Sequence record: GQ981382
DNA length: 64,000 nucleotides
Reading direction: 5' to 3' (one strand)
From: Shigella phage SP18
Under the pieces are notes generated by a model, which searched no databases, had not been told where the DNA came from, and saw only the letters and a program-made list of their open reading frames with translations. This document shows, in pieces, positions 4,865-57,569 of the stretch (position 1 is its first letter; the number at the start of each line of letters is the position of its first letter). A program made the translations under genes and the position numbers.

Positions 4865-4884
4865 AAAGGCCCGAAGGCCTTTTA
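4865..4884 (-). terminator. hairpin terminator (GGCC-cgaa-GGCC with flanking U/A tracts)
   Basis: inverted repeat aaaGGCCcgaaGGCCttt; between upstream gene stop and gene 39 promoter. Confidence 0.5.
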
Positions 4885-5280
4885 TTTGAATCGAAGCTGC
4901 TCTAACATTTTAATAGCTTGTAGGCGTCCGGCTTCAGTTTTAACCGTAATAATAACATCACCGCCGGTAACAACGATATCCTCTTTTGATTCCTGTTCGG
5001 TTATTTCAGAATCACATTCTGGAACTTCTTCAAAATATTTAAATTCATCACCAAAAATAAGACCGGTTCCATTACGACTATGGAAAGAAAATCCAGTCCC
5101 ATCGATAGTACTAAATTCCGTAACAACATTTGAATCCATCTTAGTGACTGAAAACTCTTTGGTGGTAACCAAATCAATGATAGAGGTTCCTTGTTGGTTC
5201 AAAATACTACCAGGCATACCGACATGTTTAAGGAAGCCATCTAAATCTTTAATGCAATAACTCTTTCCAATTTTAAACAT
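4882..5280 (-). CDS. hypothetical protein (goF/39.x region)
   Basis: ORF track 4882..5295 starts at a TTG; first ATG (MFKIGKSY) preceded by GAGGA gives 132 aa. Confidence 0.5.
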   Translation of the reverse strand: MFKIGKSYCIKDLDGFLKHVGMPGSILNQQGTSIIDLVTTKEFSVTKMDSNVVTEFSTIDGTGFSFHSRNGTGLIFGDEFKYFEEVPECDSEITEQESKEDIVVTGGDVIITVKTEAGRLQAIKMLEQLRFK

Positions 5281-5287
5281 AATATCC

Positions 5288-5548
5288 TCATTCAAATCGG
5301 ATGGTTGAATTTTTAAACAGCAATCCAGAACAAACAGTTCCTTTAACTTTCTTACCGGTTGGGCCTACGGCTGTAAAACCAGTATGCTGAAAATCATCTT
5401 CAGAGCAACCCAACCAGTTATATCCGGTGATTTGGATTTGCTCATAGCCGTTTGCATCTAATACCCGAATGGCATTATCTGCATCAGTACAACCAGCCAA
5501 TGAAACCGCCAGTACCAGTGCTGCAATAGAACGATTAATGTATTTCAT
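5288..5548 (-). CDS. small lipoprotein (signal peptide with lipobox LAGC)
   Basis: MKYINRSIAALVLAVSLAGC N-terminus; ATG with GAGGAA SD. Confidence 0.6.
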   Translation of the reverse strand: MKYINRSIAALVLAVSLAGCTDADNAIRVLDANGYEQIQITGYNWLGCSEDDFQHTGFTAVGPTGKKVKGTVCSGLLFKNSTIRFE

Positions 5549-18446: not shown

Positions 18447-18740
18447 TTATTCACCTGTAACCCATTGAACAATCTTGCTGTTGTCAAATGAAGCATCGCA
18501 ATACAGAACATAGTTATACTGCATAACATCACCAGAAGTCAATTGGTCAGATACTTCTTTAACCATATCAGGACGGTCACGTTTAGTAATATTCATGATG
18601 TCAGCATAAATCTGATGTTCAACATCAGCCTGGTCAGCAGTCATGGACCACTCGCAAAGGTCTTTATCAAGTCCAGCAGTAACTGGAGCTGTGCCACATG
18701 ATGCTACGGTAAGAATTGCTGCGATTAATAACTTTTTCAT
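18447..18740 (-). CDS. sp: Spackle periplasmic protein (superinfection exclusion; inhibitor of gp5 lysozyme)
   Basis: 97 aa with signal peptide; DKDLCEWSMTADQ and MQYNYVLYCD motifs as in T4 Sp. Confidence 0.85.
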   Translation of the reverse strand: MKKLLIAAILTVASCGTAPVTAGLDKDLCEWSMTADQADVEHQIYADIMNITKRDRPDMVKEVSDQLTSGDVMQYNYVLYCDASFDNSKIVQWVTGE

Positions 18741-23129: not shown

Positions 23130-23633
23130 TTAGTTAATACCTTGGCGTGCTTTCTCTTTAGCTATACATTTATTAATATAGCTCAGACGGTTTTGAGCAG
23201 AACGCTGATACATATCGCGGTACTCATTAGCTTTTGGAGAACCCGTCTCCGCCGCCTGATAAGCTTCCGCGCGCATGATGTTTATCTGCATATTGATGTA
23301 TGACATGCAGACCTGCGAAATCTGGTTAACAGTATCCAGGTCATTTTGTCGCTTGGTTTCTGCTTCCAGCTTGGCAATGATTTCGTCATGCTTCGCAGCT
23401 TGCTCGCGTTTGTACTCAATTTCTTGTTGAGCATATTTCGCGCAGTTGTTTCCACATTGATTGTTGTCGCGTTTGTAGATAAGTCCAGTACCACCTTTGA
23501 AATCAAAGGAACCATTATGCACCCGACGGTCGGCAGCAATTCGCGCTTTACCAATCTCGTTGGCATTAACAACATCACCCTGGTAAGCACAACCAGATAG
23601 CAGCATAACAGCTGCGATAGCTAACTTTTTCAT
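23130..23633 (-). CDS. lipoprotein of unknown function, coiled-coil rich
   Basis: signal peptide plus lipobox MKKLAIAAVMLLSGC; track ORF extended upstream. Confidence 0.55.
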   Translation of the reverse strand: MKKLAIAAVMLLSGCAYQGDVVNANEIGKARIAADRRVHNGSFDFKGGTGLIYKRDNNQCGNNCAKYAQQEIEYKREQAAKHDEIIAKLEAETKRQNDLDTVNQISQVCMSYINMQINIMRAEAYQAAETGSPKANEYRDMYQRSAQNRLSYINKCIAKEKARQGIN

Positions 23634-23783
23634 TGTATTTTCCTCAATTAAAACATTCATAGCGGGCTTGGAGCCCCAAAAATACCCAACCCAAAATTAA
23701 AGTTGGAATCATATGTGGAGTCATTATTGCCCAGTAGATTGACATACTAAAAAATGCAATCAGTACAATAATTGTAATTATCT

Positions 23784-24026
23784 TCATTTTGCTTCCTTGA
23801 TGATAATTACTTGTGCGTTTGATTTACGTTCAGCAACGAGTGCCCAGATAAATGCAATAAACCATCCGACCATTGTCCAACCTAACAGGAGGTTAACAAA
23901 GAAGATTCCGCAATTACTTTTGGTTCCACGCAGTAGCGCGATAATCCACGGCAGAAAATATGCCAGTGCAGCCAGGAAGAAAGAACCTGCACCAAGAACA
24001 ACAGTACCCGCAATTAATGTTTCCAT
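23784..24026 (-). CDS. small two-TM membrane protein (possible Imm-like, immediately upstream of gene 43)
   Basis: 80 aa highly hydrophobic; T4 imm occupies this position; assignment tentative. Confidence 0.5.
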   Translation of the reverse strand: METLIAGTVVLGAGSFFLAALAYFLPWIIALLRGTKSNCGIFFVNLLLGWTMVGWFIAFIWALVAERKSNAQVIIIKEAK

Positions 24027-51337: not shown

Positions 51338-51574
51338 TCACCAGTATTTTTTGATGGTAGAAATTAATTCTTGGACTTGAGTGTTCTTCAGCTTGCACCC
51401 ACAACCTTTTAAGGTGTCTTTAAGGAGCCATGGTTCCTTGAGCTCGTCCTTTTCCAGGCGGATTCTATATCCTCTGTAATCAGCAAATATGCTTCCGTCA
51501 TCAAATATCTTAATTTCAAGAATATGATTATTGGTTTCATATTCCAATGAAACCATGGTATTTGTAAGTTTCAT
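51338..51574 (-). CDS. hypothetical protein
   Basis: 78 aa ORF. Confidence 0.45.
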   Translation of the reverse strand: MKLTNTMVSLEYETNNHILEIKIFDDGSIFADYRGYRIRLEKDELKEPWLLKDTLKGCGCKLKNTQVQELISTIKKYW

Positions 51575-51777
51575 TATTCCACCACATATGATAATGAGAA
51601 AATTGCTGATGAAAGATGGGTAGCATCTTCTTCACACAGTTCAAATGGAGCTTTCTGTAAGAGTTCAACCACTTCTTCATCAGTGGCACTGTCCATAAAG
51701 ATTGCATAATCATTAAGATAGATAACAACCTCATCACCAGTATTAACTGCATCAATCTTGATATTTTTAATTCTCAT
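51574..51777 (-). CDS. small hypothetical acidic protein
   Basis: 67 aa immediately downstream of promoter cassette. Confidence 0.5.
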   Translation of the reverse strand: MRIKNIKIDAVNTGDEVVIYLNDYAIFMDSATDEEVVELLQKAPFELCEEDATHLSSAIFSLSYVVE

Positions 51778-51805
51778 TGTGTTCTCCTCAGTAGTTGATG
51801 GGATA

Positions 51806-51835
51806 ATAGTACACCCTTTTTATGGTGTTGTAAAC
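51806..51835 (-). promoter_or_regulatory. early promoter (GTTTAC -35, TACTAT -10), near-identical to cassette at 20.05 kb
   Basis: GGTTTACaacaccataaaaagggtgTACTATtatcccatcaactactgaggag. Confidence 0.55.
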
Positions 51836-51878
51836 CCCCTAAATGAAAAAAGGTCCACCCGAAGGCAGACCTTTTGAA

Positions 51879-52262
51879 TTACTCTAATGTTAACAGATAC
51901 TTAGTCTGAAAGAAAACTCCAACGATATCGTCCAGGGTCGATTGAATAGCCTTGGGTACAACTTTATAGACTCTTTCCGAGCTTTTAATCATTTCATCTA
52001 AAAACAAAATTGTATCTTTCGGCAAGTCCGAGGCGGACGGTAATGCAGCTTTGTATTGTTTCCCGCTGTAACCTAACCATTGCTCACTGAACTGGTCGAG
52101 TGGACCTTGGATTTCTGTGAAGTAGAAATCATAAGCTTTATGGCGGGCGTAACTTTTGGTTTCAAGATGGGCGGACTTAAAATAAGCCAAAGAGACTAAC
52201 AACCACCCAATATATGAATCCACCTCAGACCCACGACCCGTTACGAAATCATCAAATTTCAT
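51879..52262 (-). CDS. hypothetical protein
   Basis: 127 aa ORF. Confidence 0.5.
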   Translation of the reverse strand: MKFDDFVTGRGSEVDSYIGWLLVSLAYFKSAHLETKSYARHKAYDFYFTEIQGPLDQFSEQWLGYSGKQYKAALPSASDLPKDTILFLDEMIKSSERVYKVVPKAIQSTLDDIVGVFFQTKYLLTLE

Positions 52263-52545
52263 CTTCCAATTTTACCTTCATTAATTTAGCGTACTCTCTC
52301 GCCGCAGCTTTACCATCGCTTTTGCAGGTAATTTCAGTTTCGCATTGGCTTTTGTTGTTCCATTCAGTCTTGATAAACGCCCAGAACTGTTCGGATTGGT
52401 GTACGCTTGGTTCTTTGAATTGCGAATAAATCTTCATCGCACTATCTGCATATTGGGTAAACTTCCCATCTGTTGCAGAGGACAGATTTGGACCTAAACA
52501 GCCCAGGATTATTAGACTTAATGAAAGTCCTCGAATAAGGTCCAT
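52252..52545 (-). CDS. lipoprotein of unknown function
   Basis: 97 aa; signal peptide with lipobox LGC. Confidence 0.5.
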   Translation of the reverse strand: MDLIRGLSLSLIILGCLGPNLSSATDGKFTQYADSAMKIYSQFKEPSVHQSEQFWAFIKTEWNNKSQCETEITCKSDGKAAAREYAKLMKVKLEDEI

Positions 52546-52617
52546 AAGGACTCCTATTGTTGGTCATGATTACGCTTTGCAGCCTTAACATAGCGGAATA
52601 CTAGTTAGTAACTGTAT

Positions 52618-52893
52618 TTATAGACGTTTAAAATTAAAGCAGTACTCTGAAAATAAACCTGCAAAATTACGTTCAACCCAGACCCGTTGTTTTGGACTGG
52701 TGACCGTTGACAAATAGTATGCTTGTTGCAGGCTTATTCCGTTTTTATTGGGGCACTCTTTGTTGAACGAGTGATAGGTACTTGCAACGATTTCGACTTC
52801 GCGCTCATACCTTTCCTGGTCCTGTTGCATAGGAACAAAAACCAAAACCAGGAATATCAAAATAGAGATATACGTCCAAACCTTGTATACCAT
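52618..52893 (-). CDS. membrane-anchored hypothetical protein
   Basis: 91 aa with N-terminal TM helix. Confidence 0.5.
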   Translation of the reverse strand: MVYKVWTYISILIFLVLVFVPMQQDQERYEREVEIVASTYHSFNKECPNKNGISLQQAYYLSTVTSPKQRVWVERNFAGLFSEYCFNFKRL

Positions 52894-52900
52894 GTGAACC

Positions 52901-53473
52901 TCAGCTTGTTAATTCGAGCCAATGTTTTCTGCACAAAGATACGTACGATTCATTCCCACCGACCAATACTTGCTCGCCGTCCTTTACAGCAGCACCGTCG
53001 ATTACTCGAGCGGTCATGGTTGCTTTCCGGCCGCAATGGCAGACGCCCTTTAATTCAACCAGTTTATCCGAAATAGCCAGAAGTCTGGCCGAACCGGGAA
53101 ATAATTGACCCCGAAAATCTGTTCTTAACCCGTAACACATAACGGGGATATTGTAATTATCAACCACTTGAGCTAACTGGTCAATTTGCTCTGGTAACAA
53201 AAATTGAGCTTCATCGACCAGGACACAATGGATATCCTTTTGAGACTCGGCCCATTTATAGAATTCAAACAGGTTCATGTCGGCCGTTACCAGGTTTGCT
53301 TCCTGGCTAATACCGATGCGTGATTTAATTTCGCCTTCCGAGTCCCGATTATCAATAACAGGTTTTAGCAAAAGCACACTCATTCCACGCTCTTTATAGG
53401 AATAAGCTGCAGTCAGCAATGAAGCTGTTTTGCCTGCATTCATTGCTGCGTAATGATAAATTAAACTCGCCAT
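52901..53473 (-). CDS. tk: thymidine kinase
   Basis: 190 aa; P-loop MNAGKT, VDEAQF box and C-terminal zinc-ribbon cysteines. Confidence 0.9.
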   Translation of the reverse strand: MASLIYHYAAMNAGKTASLLTAAYSYKERGMSVLLLKPVIDNRDSEGEIKSRIGISQEANLVTADMNLFEFYKWAESQKDIHCVLVDEAQFLLPEQIDQLAQVVDNYNIPVMCYGLRTDFRGQLFPGSARLLAISDKLVELKGVCHCGRKATMTARVIDGAAVKDGEQVLVGGNESYVSLCRKHWLELTS

Positions 53474-53482
53474 ATCACCTTC

Positions 53483-53668
53483 TTAAAGCGTATTCACATA
53501 AGCTATTAATTCGTTTTCTTTCGCATCAAATCGATTAGCAAATTCTTCCTGATGTTCGGCATCTATTGGACCGTATTCATCATAAAAGGCGTTTGCTTCT
53601 GTATGCTCATCCAAAAGCTCATGGATAAGCTCAAATAATCTACTTTTCTGACTAATGCTTAAACTCAT
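53483..53668 (-). CDS. small hypothetical acidic protein
   Basis: 61 aa ORF. Confidence 0.4.
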   Translation of the reverse strand: MSLSISQKSRLFELIHELLDEHTEANAFYDEYGPIDAEHQEEFANRFDAKENELIAYVNTL

Positions 53669-53892
53669 TTCGGTTCCCCATATCGCACAAATTTAGGATG
53701 TTCGCAATAACCAGAATGAAAACCTTCACCCTTATGATTGGAACACCCTTTATTGGAACAGTACCACCAGTAATCATATTCGCAATTCATTTCATCGTTG
53801 CATAAAGCTGCGATTACTGGCCATTCACATTTTTCACATTTGGCCGTTTTAAGAATTCGGGCTTGGCTCATAACCATTGCACCTTTAAGCAA
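53665..53892 (-). CDS. small Cys-rich zinc-binding-like protein
   Basis: 75 aa with about 9 cysteines (CEKCEW...CSNKGCSNH...CEHP). Confidence 0.45.
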   Translation of the reverse strand: MLKGAMVMSQARILKTAKCEKCEWPVIAALCNDEMNCEYDYWWYCSNKGCSNHKGEGFHSGYCEHPKFVRYGEPK

Positions 53893-54080
53893 TATTCTTC
53901 TACGTGCTGTTTACGTTTATTTTTATCTATAAAAGTATATTCAACATATTCACCGATATACCATTTATCAGTGTTGTGTTGACTTTTTATAGGACATTTG
54001 GTTACTCGAGTTTCGGTCCAGCGTCGAATAATTTCCGCTTTGTTTTTAGGGTCAAACGGATGTGGGTAATGTGCTTTCAT
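53868..54080 (-). CDS. small hypothetical protein
   Basis: 70 aa ORF. Confidence 0.4.
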   Translation of the reverse strand: MKAHYPHPFDPKNKAEIIRRWTETRVTKCPIKSQHNTDKWYIGEYVEYTFIDKNKRKQHVEEYCLKVQWL

Positions 54081-54531
54081 AATCCACCACTATTAAATCA
54101 ATGTCAGGAGTAAACATATCAATTAATTGAGATACCTTATCCCAATCACCACCAGCAATACCACAACCAATACGTGGAATATAAATTACCGGTTTAAACA
54201 AAAGGGTTTCTGCTTGTAGATTTAATTCTATCATACAATTTACTAAAGCGCCATAATCAAGATTAGGGCCTGGTTCGTATTGCGTATACAAGTTATAGCA
54301 CATGCCAAAACCTGTAGGCTTATGTTTAAAAACAATAGACATATCGCCTAATTTATCACGAGAACCGTATTCAGTAGTGGTTTTATCTATTTCTAAAACT
54401 TTTGGATAAGCCTTCGCCAACTGTCCAGCTACACCGGAACCCATTGTATGAAAGCAGTTGCAACCATGTGCAATAATATTGCCTTGAAGAAAGAGGGCGA
54501 CGATATCGCCCTTAATATACTGGGTAATCAT
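54052..54531 (-). CDS. macro-domain protein (ADP-ribose binding/processing fold)
   Basis: 159 aa; glycine-rich signatures (HGCNCFHTMGSGVAGQL; IGCGIAGGDW) typical of macro domains; called by eye. Confidence 0.55.
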   Translation of the reverse strand: MITQYIKGDIVALFLQGNIIAHGCNCFHTMGSGVAGQLAKAYPKVLEIDKTTTEYGSRDKLGDMSIVFKHKPTGFGMCYNLYTQYEPGPNLDYGALVNCMIELNLQAETLLFKPVIYIPRIGCGIAGGDWDKVSQLIDMFTPDIDLIVVDYESTLPTSV

Positions 54532-54887
54532 TTAGAGTTCAATCCTCTATTATATGAATCCACTAACCTGTCAACCATACTGGTGCAGGCCGCCTTGTAT
54601 TTTGCACTTGATAGAATGCAATCCATTTCAAATAATTTCTTTTCATATTTGTTGGATAATACATTCTTTTTCAAAAGCGTATGTTCAACATCATTTTGAC
54701 CATCTTTATAGGCTGCGGTGAGCTTGGCACTGAACTGGATTATACAATCCACATTGCTTGCTGCGCAATAATCTTTAGCCGTCCTCGTTGCATATTCTAT
54801 GATGCTGTTGTTGTCGTCGCTCTGTACTGAAGCTATTCCTCCCATGCTGAATACTAACCCTATGACTAAAGTGATAACTCTTACCAT
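54528..54887 (-). CDS. secreted/periplasmic protein (Vs position)
   Basis: 119 aa with cleavable signal peptide. Confidence 0.5.
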   Translation of the reverse strand: MVRVITLVIGLVFSMGGIASVQSDDNNSIIEYATRTAKDYCAASNVDCIIQFSAKLTAAYKDGQNDVEHTLLKKNVLSNKYEKKLFEMDCILSSAKYKAACTSMVDRLVDSYNRGLNSK

Positions 54888-54889
54888 TT

Positions 54890-55432
54890 TTAATCCACCG
54901 TTTTTAATAGGCCTCGTGATTTTAAGTAGTTAGCTTTTTCTAGGACCTGTGAAGCATACTTATTACCAGCTTTCACATTCCATCCTGCGTTATATGATGA
55001 TAGCGTTTTTCTTATATCCCCCTTATGAATATTCAACCAGTATGAAAGCTCAATATAAGCCCAGCGTGCACTGTTCTCTCTCTTGCTTATCATCTTGATT
55101 ATTTCTTTATCTGTCATTGTCCACCCAACCTGTTTCACTCGTTCGCGTACGGTTGGAAGATAATTTTGGAATATACCATATGCATGATGCTTATCTTTAT
55201 TTAATCCAGTATTAACCCCAGCAGAACTTTCCTGCCAGGTTAAACCAGCCATGATATATCCCAAACCATTACGTTGGTGTGGATTTTCTTTGTACTTGCC
55301 ATTTTTCTGGAACTGTTCTCCAAACGCATAAGCATATTGAAGGTTCTCCATTTGTTCATTACTGAAAGTAGGCTCTACGCTATGGGCAGACATACTAACT
55401 GTCAATAGTAAGGTGGCGATTACTTTTTTCAT
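54890..55432 (-). CDS. secreted lysozyme-like / lytic transglycosylase-like protein (tentative)
   Basis: 180 aa with signal peptide; weak SLT-like E-S ... GIFQ motifs. Confidence 0.45.
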   Translation of the reverse strand: MKKVIATLLLTVSMSAHSVEPTFSNEQMENLQYAYAFGEQFQKNGKYKENPHQRNGLGYIMAGLTWQESSAGVNTGLNKDKHHAYGIFQNYLPTVRERVKQVGWTMTDKEIIKMISKRENSARWAYIELSYWLNIHKGDIRKTLSSYNAGWNVKAGNKYASQVLEKANYLKSRGLLKTVD

Positions 55433-55442
55433 GAATTCCCCA

Positions 55443-55901
55443 TTAGATATAAATCACTTTTGTGCTAATTTTTCCTTCCAGACGATTAGAGTTAACAAAC
55501 GCCATACGACAACACATGGTTGGAGACTTCCCAGGAATAGCTGGATTAACTGTCATTCCTAACCATAGGTTCTTGTCTGTGATTTCCAGACGAAGTGGAC
55601 GGTAGTTCACATTCGGGTCAATTTGTGCTTCAACTTCCGGGAGTGGTTTCATCTCCAGGAATTCAACGATTTCTTTTACATGTGGTGTGATTTTTCCAAA
55701 CAAGTCAAAAACATATTGTTCATCAATTTCACGTTGGATTGCACGGTCCAATAGGTGTGGACTGTACTTAATGAAGAATACTTCAAGGCCTGCTTCTTTA
55801 CAAGCCTTGTTGATAGCATTATTAATTTTGAGGAACTCCGTTTCAAAAATGCGACGAAGTTTATTGCGGCGAATGTAAACACTTGAATCGATAGTAGTCA
55901 T
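55443..55901 (-). CDS. regB: RegB sequence-specific endoribonuclease
   Basis: about 152 aa from MTTIDSSVYIRRNKLRR; HLLDRAIQREIDE and YRPLRLEITDKNLWLG match T4 RegB. Confidence 0.85.
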   Translation of the reverse strand: MTTIDSSVYIRRNKLRRIFETEFLKINNAINKACKEAGLEVFFIKYSPHLLDRAIQREIDEQYVFDLFGKITPHVKEIVEFLEMKPLPEVEAQIDPNVNYRPLRLEITDKNLWLGMTVNPAIPGKSPTMCCRMAFVNSNRLEGKISTKVIYI

Positions 55902-55928
55902 GATTATCTCCTTTTGTTTGATGGGATA

Positions 55929-56537
<609 letters not shown>

Positions 56538-56541
<4 letters not shown>

Positions 56542-56771
56542 TTCACTTCCTCGCCAGTTGCGATATCATATTCTACCAAACGAAGGCCTTCAGTCCAACC
56601 TTGCACGGAGATATAGGTAGACGGGTAAATCATTTCTTTACCATTCCACCGACCGCCATCCCAGACTTCCAGAAAGTCTTGTTCACCTGGTCCATTAAAC
56701 CATTCAACAAATCTTTTCAGAGCTTCATCAGAGCCTTCAATTGTCAATTTAGACATATTTTTTCCAGTCAC
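56538..56771 (-). CDS. hypothetical protein
   Basis: 77 aa ORF. Confidence 0.45.
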
Positions 56772-57045
56772 TAATTAATCGCACATCCTGGTCATAGGTC
56801 AGGAGGCTACGAGTGATAATACCCTTACACGGTCCAGAAATAAATTCCAGAGTAAAGTAAGGAACCTGTTTCATTAATCGGATACTTGGAGCATGACATC
56901 TAAAACGAGAGCCCTTAAAGGGCCCTGACATGAATACATATTCTAATGGATAGAAATAAGCATATTCAAAATTTGTAGTAAGGTCCTCTCTTCGGACCTT
57001 ACGTGAGAAATAACAGAACTCAAAAAGTTCTTCATCAGTCATCAT
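56749..57045 (-). CDS. hypothetical protein
   Basis: 98 aa ORF. Confidence 0.45.
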   Translation of the reverse strand: MMTDEELFEFCYFSRKVRREDLTTNFEYAYFYPLEYVFMSGPFKGSRFRCHAPSIRLMKQVPYFTLEFISGPCKGIITRSLLTYDQDVRLISDWKKYV

Positions 57046-57569
57046 TGCATTCCTATCACAAAGAACAGTGGCAGAGGTTTAGAACCTTGGCACATAAATT
57101 TATTCATCATTGTCTGATAAGCTTCATAGAACTTATCCATCGCTGGTAGGCGAATAGGCTCTTCAATAATAATCAATAATCGGGTAACAGACAGTCCACG
57201 ATATTTGTGAAAATGATCTTCATCTAAAAATGAACGAACAGTATCATATACAACAAAACCAGGTCGTTCAACATTAAGATGTGGCTGTGCTTTAGAAACC
57301 CGCTTTATTATATCACAGATTTCTCGTGAGCGATGCGAAGAACTCGACATAACAATCACATCATTACCTTTGGAAACCCAATCCGCAGCAAACTGTGCAA
57401 TGGCACTTGTTTTACCTGTTTGTCGCCCACCGTCAAGTCTCAGAGTGCCAAACTCTTGCATTCTTGAAGCGGGTTCATACCAGGTGTATTGGTCTGAATC
57501 TAAACGTTCAATGGCGCGTTCAGCGAAGGCGTGCATTAAGGTTAGATAAATGGGAGTTAAAAATTTCAT
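57042..57569 (-). CDS. P-loop NTPase of unknown function
   Basis: 175 aa; Walker A GGRQTGKTS and Walker B-like LLIIIEEP. Confidence 0.55.
   Translation of the reverse strand: MKFLTPIYLTLMHAFAERAIERLDSDQYTWYEPASRMQEFGTLRLDGGRQTGKTSAIAQFAADWVSKGNDVIVMSSSSHRSREICDIIKRVSKAQPHLNVERPGFVVYDTVRSFLDEDHFHKYRGLSVTRLLIIIEEPIRLPAMDKFYEAYQTMMNKFMCQGSKPLPLFFVIGMQ

Follow-up and report, generated by a model that had tools for sequence, protein, structure and literature searches.

We conclude that two adjacent minus-strand genes of Shigella phage SP18, vs.1 (54890-55432) and vs (54528-54887), are the sole conserved functional unit among six genes flagged as encoding secreted or envelope-targeted proteins in a 64,000-nucleotide stretch of its DNA (sequence record GQ981382; here called the window); the six genes belong to several unrelated functions. 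Judging from sequence, we slightly favor the view that vs.1 and vs specify a co-translated, co-exported periplasmic pair for murein remodeling, in which an enzyme of the soluble lytic transglycosylase (SLT) type would be accompanied by a small disulfide-stabilized partner acting in the same pathway. The parts of this reading differ in strength: an exported Vs.1 with an SLT fold is highly probable, a periplasmic Vs is likely, and a functional partnership of the two proteins is an even call. The annotation of vs as "valyl-tRNA synthetase modifier," set against the exported, Vs.1-coupled nature of its product, is the sole point in the window that we consider worth following up, and its interest is modest.

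The two genes are tightly joined in the window and in most of the relatives that carry them. vs.1 encodes 180 amino acids and vs encodes 119, and the ATG of vs lies 2 nucleotides (nt) after the vs.1 stop; in many relatives, the two overlap by 1 to 8 nt. We examined 70 viral contigs encoding a Vs.1 relative for an adjacent vs. At 59/70 loci, an open reading frame (ORF) of about 100 to 120 amino acids has its start -8 to +7 nt from the stop of vs.1, and its product carries a signal peptide, four cysteines, and, at the C terminus, a Y-x-x-G-L motif. With a stricter filter that also counted copies displaced by up to 1.3 kb, a Vs-like gene is found at 61/70 vs.1 loci. The coupling persists across genera down to 40% Vs.1 identity. 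In Moon-like phages, one to three genes separate vs.1 from the Vs-like gene, which is still located just upstream of the macro-domain gene, and the adjacency of the vs-like and macro genes is kept in very divergent phages. In the window, the macro-domain gene, tk.4 (54052-54531, minus strand), directly follows vs; conserved as a synteny anchor, it encodes a cytoplasmic product that stands outside the exported set. The arrangement expected of a hydrolase and its inhibitor, that is, adjacent and co-expressed genes with products in one compartment, is what we find here, given the short stop-start distance in 59 of the 70 loci and the export signals on both proteins. At Aeromonas-type loci, a nonhomologous secreted protein of 140 to 146 amino acids fills the Vs slot upstream of the macro gene; three of these loci encode it with a lipobox (YGC), and one encodes it with a type I signal.

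The larger protein, Vs.1, is 66% identical to T4 Vs.1 and belongs to a family confined to T4-like phages. It begins with a signal peptide of the n-h-c type (residues 1-18, MKKVIATLLLTVSMSAHS followed by VE, with the predicted cut between AHS and V). In both the vs and vs.1 signal peptides, Lys or Arg stands at positions 2-3, the uncharged core is 10 to 12 residues long, and small residues occupy -3/-1. By a heuristic count, such export features are kept in 85-86/87 Vs.1 homologues though the residues vary, and in 25-26/26 Vs homologues while the sequence drifts. An earlier first-pass annotation, which had proposed that 54528-54887 and 54890-55432 encode secreted proteins, is supported by these canonical signal peptides and their preservation. 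The calculated mass of mature Vs.1 is 18.7 kDa, and its calculated pI is 9.5.

The first-pass annotation had also described the product of 54890-55432 as weakly lysozyme/transglycosylase-like, and this description is not only borne out but strengthened by family-wide matches, conserved motifs, and structural comparison. All 33 of the 33 aligned Vs.1 homologues match Pfam SLT (E <= 0.05, best 1.3e-7), many of them with a precomputed PF01464 hit. Columns that are invariant in 34 Vs.1 sequences of 42-98% identity (W66-x-E68-S69-S70, G86-x-x-Q89-N90, S146-Y147-N148-x-G150, and Y159) are, by alignment, the motifs of family-1 lytic transglycosylases, with Glu68 as the predicted catalytic residue. 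The protein has the lysozyme-like all-helical catalytic fold, and its top structural matches include Tse3 (in the Tse3-Tsi3 complex) and g-type lysozyme (in the lysozyme-PliG complex). We infer that Vs.1 is a murein glycan-cutting enzyme. It differs in several ways from the family-1 SLT/GH23 enzymes with which we compared it (Escherichia coli Slt70, MltC, and MltE; Pseudomonas aeruginosa Slt and MltF; and EtgA, which is associated with a type III secretion system). Vs.1 is encoded by a lytic phage within a pre-replicative gene block and has its own Sec signal, it is only 13-16% identical to any solved enzyme, and a small exported partner always accompanies it. Unlike T7 gp16 and phiKZ gp144, it is not carried by the virion; it is also not holin released. 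A literature search on Vs.1 found nothing.

The smaller protein, Vs, is the orthologue of T4 Vs (the tau peptide) by both sequence and gene position: the two have the same length, are 45% identical over their full length, and are both encoded between vs.1 and tk.4 (phrog_1256, 5e-33). The predicted signal peptide, again of the n-h-c type, covers approximately residues 1-20 (MVRVITLVIGLVFSMGGIAS followed by VQ), which gives a mature protein of about 11.1 kDa; T4 Vs starts with MTKILVLCIGLISFSASASA followed by DTSY. Throughout the family, C41, C48, C90, and C101 are conserved and the C-terminal SMVDRLVDSYNRGL is nearly invariant, with a spacing of 6-7 between the first two cysteines (11 in six sequences) and 9-11 between the last two. 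In an AlphaFold2 model (predicted local distance difference test score of 79), Vs is a four-helix bundle in which each cysteine pair brackets a helix-helix turn, and the model suggests two stapling disulfides. Four distinct sequences of Vs orthologues, from five loci, begin with MKKLFVLLVVFALSGC, in which a lipobox replaces the type I signal. Since a type I signal and a lipobox can be exchanged for each other in this family, we infer that Vs works outside the cytoplasm.

A profile search for Vs across 1.84 billion representatives returned 8 hits, of which the clear ones were all phage Vs and one was a repetitive protein of 3694 amino acids; as far as sequence can tell, the Vs family exists only in T4-like phages. 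The protein resembles no known lysozyme inhibitor fold. Kinship of Vs to RI or Spackle was considered and rejected, as the profile comparison aligned signal peptides only (probabilities of 0.8% and 8%). Also rejected was an internal start that would yield a signal-less cytoplasmic Vs as a conserved mechanism, as Met15 of the window protein is without a counterpart in T4 Vs.

These features sit uneasily with the name of the gene. In vivo contact with valyl-tRNA synthetase needs a cytoplasmic location, and the signal peptide, the lipobox variants, and the four cysteines do not provide for one. The function for which T4 Vs is named is cytoplasmic, whereas the whole family, including T4 Vs, has a signal peptide of the cleavable type, four cysteines, and lipoprotein variants. 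The predicted topology of Vs contradicts the textbook cytoplasmic role, although the classical function is not thereby refuted. When full-length His-tagged T4 Vs was produced in the cytoplasm, it was insoluble and accumulated in inclusion bodies (PMC8076793), a behavior that hints faintly at an exported disulfide protein.

Insertion and deletion data from relatives indicate that both genes are important. All fitness figures given here are taken from the HIDEN-SEQ preprint (10.1101/2025.11.20.689424) and concern the phages T4 and Bas37. In M9 glucose compared with LB, vs is the most depleted gene of T4 (log2 fold change of -2.19, adjusted p of 0), and a T4 vs deletion confirms this, with a plaque defect specifically in M9 glucose; vs.1 in the same comparison has a log2 fold change of -0.87 (p of 0.0055, adjusted p of 0.16). 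The T4 values in M9 are 5.0 for vs versus 11.9 for vs.1. In the LB liquid controls, mean counts in T4 are 26.6 and 33.9 for vs and 22.6 and 15.0 for vs.1, compared with LB counts of ~179 for regB, ~290 for tk.4, and ~650 for vs.3, which places the vs and vs.1 mutants 5-40 fold below their neighbors. The plate-made T4 reference library gives 103 for vs and 76 for vs.1. For Bas37, the LB liquid control gives 23.5 for vs, 73.8 for vs.1, and ~325 for the neighbors. Given this depletion in both T4 and Bas37, vs and vs.1 each matter for fitness in two phages. That vs mutants are more strongly depleted than vs.1 mutants, both in M9 and in Bas37, leans toward a restraining role of Vs, and the clear depletion of vs.1 in LB leans toward a positive role of the enzyme.

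If these observations are combined, vs.1 and vs are a translationally coupled pair with a 2-nt stop-start gap, and Sec would export both products with removal of the signal peptides, as their sequences and conservation suggest. Mature Vs.1, a family-1 SLT/GH23 protein by fold and motifs, would then cut murein glycan strands via Glu68. Mature Vs would fold in the oxidizing periplasm into a four-helix bundle with disulfides C41-C48 and C90-C101, and it would act in the Vs.1 pathway, most probably by binding Vs.1 and restraining or directing it, a role to which the coupling, the co-conservation, and the parallel mutant defects point. The outcome would be a controlled remodeling of the host sacculus that aids phage yield and is most visible in minimal medium. 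We consider it possible, but doubtful, that valyl-tRNA synthetase is no target of the vs product in vivo. Vs would then be a Sec-exported, disulfide-bonded periplasmic regulator or inhibitor of early Vs.1, the need for vs in M9 would reflect murein remodeling and not aminoacylation, and the historical "modification" of the synthetase would stem from binding that occurs once cells are broken, or from a side activity.

The main competing explanation is the classical one, in which Vs is a cytoplasmic tau peptide that binds and modifies the host valyl-tRNA synthetase, its hydrophobic N terminus does not serve export or serves the export of only part of the protein, its adjacency to vs.1 is incidental, and the vs.1 phenotypes are polar. 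Several points weigh against a murein-remodeling pair and must be set beside this explanation. The vs product is reportedly a peptide of ~10 kDa, tau, that binds the host valyl-tRNA synthetase. The Vs.1 of the window itself scores below the threshold of Pfam SLT PF01464 (14.9 bits versus a cutoff of 21.3, E of 0.02). The transposon and knockout data come from T4 and Bas37, which are relatives of this phage. The vs.1 insertion defect could be polarity on vs, and the data do not separate polarity from a shared pathway; in M9 and Bas37, depletion is weaker for vs.1 insertions than for vs insertions, as partial polarity predicts. The M9-specific plaque defect of the T4 vs deletion would also fit a role in aminoacylation, which amino acid limitation makes rate-limiting. 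The annotation in all related records and in PHROG 1256, and the literature summarized in PMC8076793 (citing Muller and Marchin 1975 and 1977), speak for the classical role as well. However, it leaves unexplained an n-h-c signal peptide that is kept in 26/26 homologues despite sequence drift and a lipoprotein signal in four distinct orthologues, which is sensible only for an extracytoplasmic protein. The CX6-7C and CX9-11C cysteine spacing at helix-helix turns is characteristic of disulfides in the periplasm and not of metal sites in the cytoplasm, and the translational coupling of vs to a second gene for an exported protein extends across genera, to the 40% level of Vs.1 identity noted above. 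The ~10 kDa given for tau is also nearer to the mass of mature T4 Vs (11.0 kDa, calculated) than to that of its precursor (13.1 kDa, calculated), which would make tau the processed, exported form. We regard the classical reading of vs and vs.1 as unlikely.

A narrower proposal, which we hold as tentative, is that Vs is a dedicated periplasmic inhibitor in an enzyme-inhibitor pair of the effector-immunity kind, sparing the sacculus from premature damage by Vs.1, so that loss of Vs would do harm by leaving Vs.1 unrestrained. The order of the genes, in which that of a hydrolase precedes that of a small partner, exported or a lipoprotein, and is translationally coupled to it, suits this proposal, as does the switching of Vs orthologues between type I signal and lipobox, which is common in immunity proteins. 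So does the appearance of Tse3 and g-type lysozyme, from complexes with Tsi3 and PliG, respectively, among the top structural matches of Vs.1, and so do the lower values of vs than of vs.1 in M9 (5.0 versus 11.9) and Bas37 (23.5 versus 73.8). It is harder to reconcile with the clear depletion of vs.1 insertions in LB, by which Vs.1 is not a mere liability unless polarity explains the effect, and with the dissimilarity of Vs to Spackle, RI, and any known lysozyme inhibitor fold. Spackle with the gp5 lysozyme and Tse3 with Tsi3 of the type VI secretion system resemble vs.1-vs in that a small exported helical or lipoprotein partner shares a compartment with a muramidase or transglycosylase, and in the case of Tse3-Tsi3, the genes are also adjacent. 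They differ in that Vs resembles neither Spackle nor known inhibitors in sequence or fold, and in that the products of vs.1 and vs come from the same phage in the same cell, with both mutants losing fitness. Improbable, in our judgment, is that vs, vs.1, and the lipoproteins encoded at 5288-5548 (gp39.1) and 23130-23633 serve exclusion by blocking DNA entry or adsorption of related phages. The two known exclusion proteins of T4, Imm and Spackle, are envelope proteins encoded in the same type of genome region, the 23130 lipoprotein gene lies downstream of imm, and one database record names a gp39.1 homologue "Cor superinfection exclusion protein." Yet gp39.1 matches no Cor family in Pfam, and searches of PADLOC and NCBIfam with nine envelope proteins gave no meaningful match, a sub-threshold signal-peptide match of the 23130 protein being the only one seen. 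Insertions in T4 39.1 are neutral, and the gp39.1 of laboratory T4 is without a signal peptide. Exclusion factors are also not expected to cut single-infection fitness in the way that vs and vs.1 mutations do, a weak argument, as liquid competitions involve superinfection. Of the envelope role suggested in the first-pass annotation, the envelope targeting holds and remodeling is the best reading for vs.1, but exclusion finds no support in these searches for vs, vs.1, gp39.1, or the 23130 protein.

The significance of a periplasmic vs.1-vs pair would lie partly in the history of the name. The vs label is about 50 years old and has been copied into hundreds of phage genomes, and the sequence points to export. 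Its exported, transglycosylase-like neighbor Vs.1 is conserved across Straboviridae. The screen that ranks vs as the T4 gene most needed in minimal medium makes the roles of vs and vs.1 experimentally tractable now. If vs.1 and vs do encode a periplasmic murein pair, early wall modification would join the host-takeover functions of T-even phages, and a widespread annotation would need correction.

The six flagged ORFs are all present where the first-pass annotation had placed them, and all are minus-strand ORFs. A Shine-Dalgarno sequence precedes every ATG by 5-9 nt, and that of the 23130 ORF supports its start at 23633. N-terminal export signals can be read on all six. Our export calls rest on conservation across homologues; a rule-based classifier of our own was used as a descriptor and not as a predictor because it mislabeled the macro-domain protein as secreted (a false positive). 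In 52252-55432, 4/9 genes encode N-terminal targeting signals, compared with 11/~120 in the window (hypergeometric p = 0.004, calculated post hoc). These four genes form two adjacent pairs, rI with a gene for a transmembrane (TM) protein and vs.1 with vs; the five genes between the pairs (tk, three small ORFs, and the macro-domain gene) encode cytoplasmic proteins. The "cluster" that had been described there resolves into two separate pairs, and the six genes are scattered over 50 kb. The accompanying statement that most of the proteins have no assigned function was overstated: RI and Spackle have been characterized in structure and function, and 54528-54887 is the orthologue of T4 vs, with its long-standing label. 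In search of promoters for the early expression assumed in the first-pass annotation, a scan for sigma-70 promoters found 17, compared with 17.6 expected from shuffled sequence, and so showed no excess; pattern searches for the MotA box and the early consensus were uninformative.

The flagged gene at 52252-52545 had been taken for that of an unassigned lipoprotein. Its 97-amino-acid product is instead the antiholin RI (PF24205 at 2.2e-30, 104.8 bits versus a cutoff of 27; phrog_1246, "lysis inhibition"; match to the PDB antiholin 6psk at 1.2e-9), whose role is well known: RI is a periplasmic antiholin that binds the holin T, leading to lysis inhibition. C68, C74, G78, and Y85 are invariant in the RI alignment. 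The alignment of the window protein with T4 RI spans the entire periplasmic domain with its two cysteines, and the two loci share the neighbors rI.-1 and tk and a late promoter. In the window, the late-promoter motif of the T4 type, TATAAATA, is found at 52622-52615 (minus strand), 70 nt upstream of rI; by pattern search it is the sole match in 51500-57500 and 1 of 4 on the minus strand of the whole window. In contrast, window RI is only 30-33% identical to T4 RI, it has a lipobox-like motif in its signal peptide that T4 RI does not have, and an unrelated membrane-anchored protein is encoded in place of rI.1.

The lipobox-like motif of RI, ILGC (residues 13-16, Cys16), lies within the hydrophobic core of the signal peptide and not at its end. 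Downstream, a signal peptidase I site, SSA/T (24/25), aligns with the T4 RI site IEA/N, and T4 RI was shown experimentally to be cleaved after Ala24 (PMC8385771). With the cysteine inside the core and the T4-aligned site downstream of it, lipoprotein status of RI is not established. We consider it unlikely, though conceivable, that RI of this phage is a lipoprotein variant that would be diacylglyceryl modified at Cys16, cut by signal peptidase II, and tethered to the membrane instead of free in the periplasm. In a wider sample of RI sequences taken from the flanks of vs.1 loci, a lipobox-like [LMF][ILMT][GA]C occurs at the same position in Gaprivervirus (ILGC and LMGC), Dhakavirus (MIGC and MAGC), phage PM2 (FTAC), and others (IGAC, LVGC, and IIAC), as a lipoprotein variant would predict. 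However, Cys16 is embedded in the hydrophobic core, and all these motif-bearing sequences keep a good, T4-aligned signal peptidase I site 7-9 residues downstream. Cysteines are also frequent at varying positions, without lipobox context, in the RI signal peptides of other genera, and Spackle, which was crystallized as a soluble 23-97 domain, has an embedded motif of the same type, [LV]ASC.

Next to rI, the ORF at 52618-52893 (minus strand) encodes a 91-amino-acid protein with an N-terminal TM anchor and two cysteines in its C-terminal part (phrog_6298). It is present in 91 phage records, mostly of Gaprivervirus and Dhakavirus, and it occupies the position of T4 rI.1 but is not homologous to it. 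Encoded beside rI and with two cysteines in its predicted periplasmic part, it could be an accessory to lysis inhibition.

The identification of 18447-18740 (minus strand) as the gene sp for Spackle is confirmed by PF25676 (2.4e-43), 65% identity to T4 Sp, and matches to PDB 6x6o (1.8e-37) and 7cn6. Spackle is a periplasmic inhibitor of the gp5 tail lysozyme. Its [LV]ASC motif, at residues 12-15 and also present in T4, is lipobox-like and lies inside the signal peptide. In Spackle, as in window RI, the embedded motif precedes a good signal peptidase I site by 7-9 residues, and such dual motifs may serve, for example, transient lipid anchoring.

Two of the flagged genes do encode lipoproteins, as judged by canonical lipoboxes at the end of the h-region and a polar start of the mature protein. 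The gene at 5288-5548 (minus strand) specifies an 86-amino-acid orthologue of T4 gp39.1 with the lipobox LAGC followed by TDADN (Cys20, Thr at +2), and that at 23130-23633 (minus strand) specifies a 167-amino-acid protein with LSGC followed by AYQGD (Cys15, Ala at +2). By default, a lipoprotein without Asp at +2 goes to the outer membrane. Because neither protein has Asp at this position, both are probably sorted there, and both families are further candidates for envelope functions. The gp39.1 family (phrog_902, 1.5e-36) is found in 1061 phage records of many genera, its homologues align from residue 1, and the full 86-amino-acid lipoprotein is kept in most T4-like phages. The 39.1 of T4 (65 amino acids) is N-terminally truncated, with stop codons upstream of the annotated Met that break the signal-peptide/lipobox region, and its insertion mutants are neutral in the reference library of the HIDEN-SEQ preprint. 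Between the topoisomerase gene 39 and the gp39.1 gene, a 137-amino-acid ORF with a TTG start (4882-5295, minus strand) shares 8 nt with the latter; T4 lacks a counterpart at that position, and the only match of the ORF is a weak one to FRD2 (E of 0.011).

The 23130 family (phrog_1754) occurs in 113 phage records and is absent from T4. Among members from four genera, which share 29-49% identity, the L[ST]GC lipobox and the four cysteines of the mature protein do not vary; the C-terminal half is helical, and a homologue search returned close relatives only. The gene lies downstream of imm (23784-24026, minus strand, PF14373) and a 47-amino-acid TM ORF (23644-23787, minus strand); in relatives, its homologue comes right after the DNA polymerase gene 43, with or without imm. 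The interval from the DNA polymerase gene to uvsX thus holds three consecutive membrane/envelope genes; in T4, gene 42, beta-gt, and segA occupy this place.

Based on sequence similarity, the window comes from a T4-like phage of the genus Gaprivervirus. Over the entire 4 kb of 52000-56000, it shares 98.8% identity with Escherichia phages P479 and 212; the identity to VR20, VR25, VR26, and UPEC07 (Straboviridae, Tevenvirinae, Gaprivervirus) is 90-94%. The G+C content of the window is ~40%, and the minus strand carries nearly all long ORFs. The gene content is ordinary for a T4-like phage, and most of what it yields is routine annotation. By comparison with the annotated T4 record, the minus-strand gene order from high to low coordinates begins with regB (55443-55958, given as the longest ORF, with a GTG start; relatives annotate a shorter ORF that starts near 55940). 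After vs.1, vs, and tk.4 come the three small ORFs (53483-54080) and tk (52901-53473), and then, past the 91-amino-acid membrane protein and rI, rI.-1 (51879-52262). A strong, intrinsic terminator-like hairpin at 51848-51875, with a 12-bp GC-rich stem and a T-run, directly follows rI.-1 and is the end of the tk-rI transcription unit.

The macro-domain protein of 54052-54531 is the orthologue of T4 Tk.4 (Pfam Macro match of 5.4e-8). The strain table of the HIDEN-SEQ preprint (10.1101/2025.11.20.689424) names the gene tk.4/adfM, and the same preprint describes an enzyme activity that strips ADP-ribose from DNA, apparently in connection with DarTG defense. Deposited annotations of the close relatives P8 and UPEC07 carry plainly wrong transferred names on small genes of this region: the 91-amino-acid membrane protein appears as "head assembly GroEL cochaperone" or "endoribonuclease," vs appears as "valyl-tRNA synthetase," and the mobD.x ORFs appear as [quoted passage not shown]

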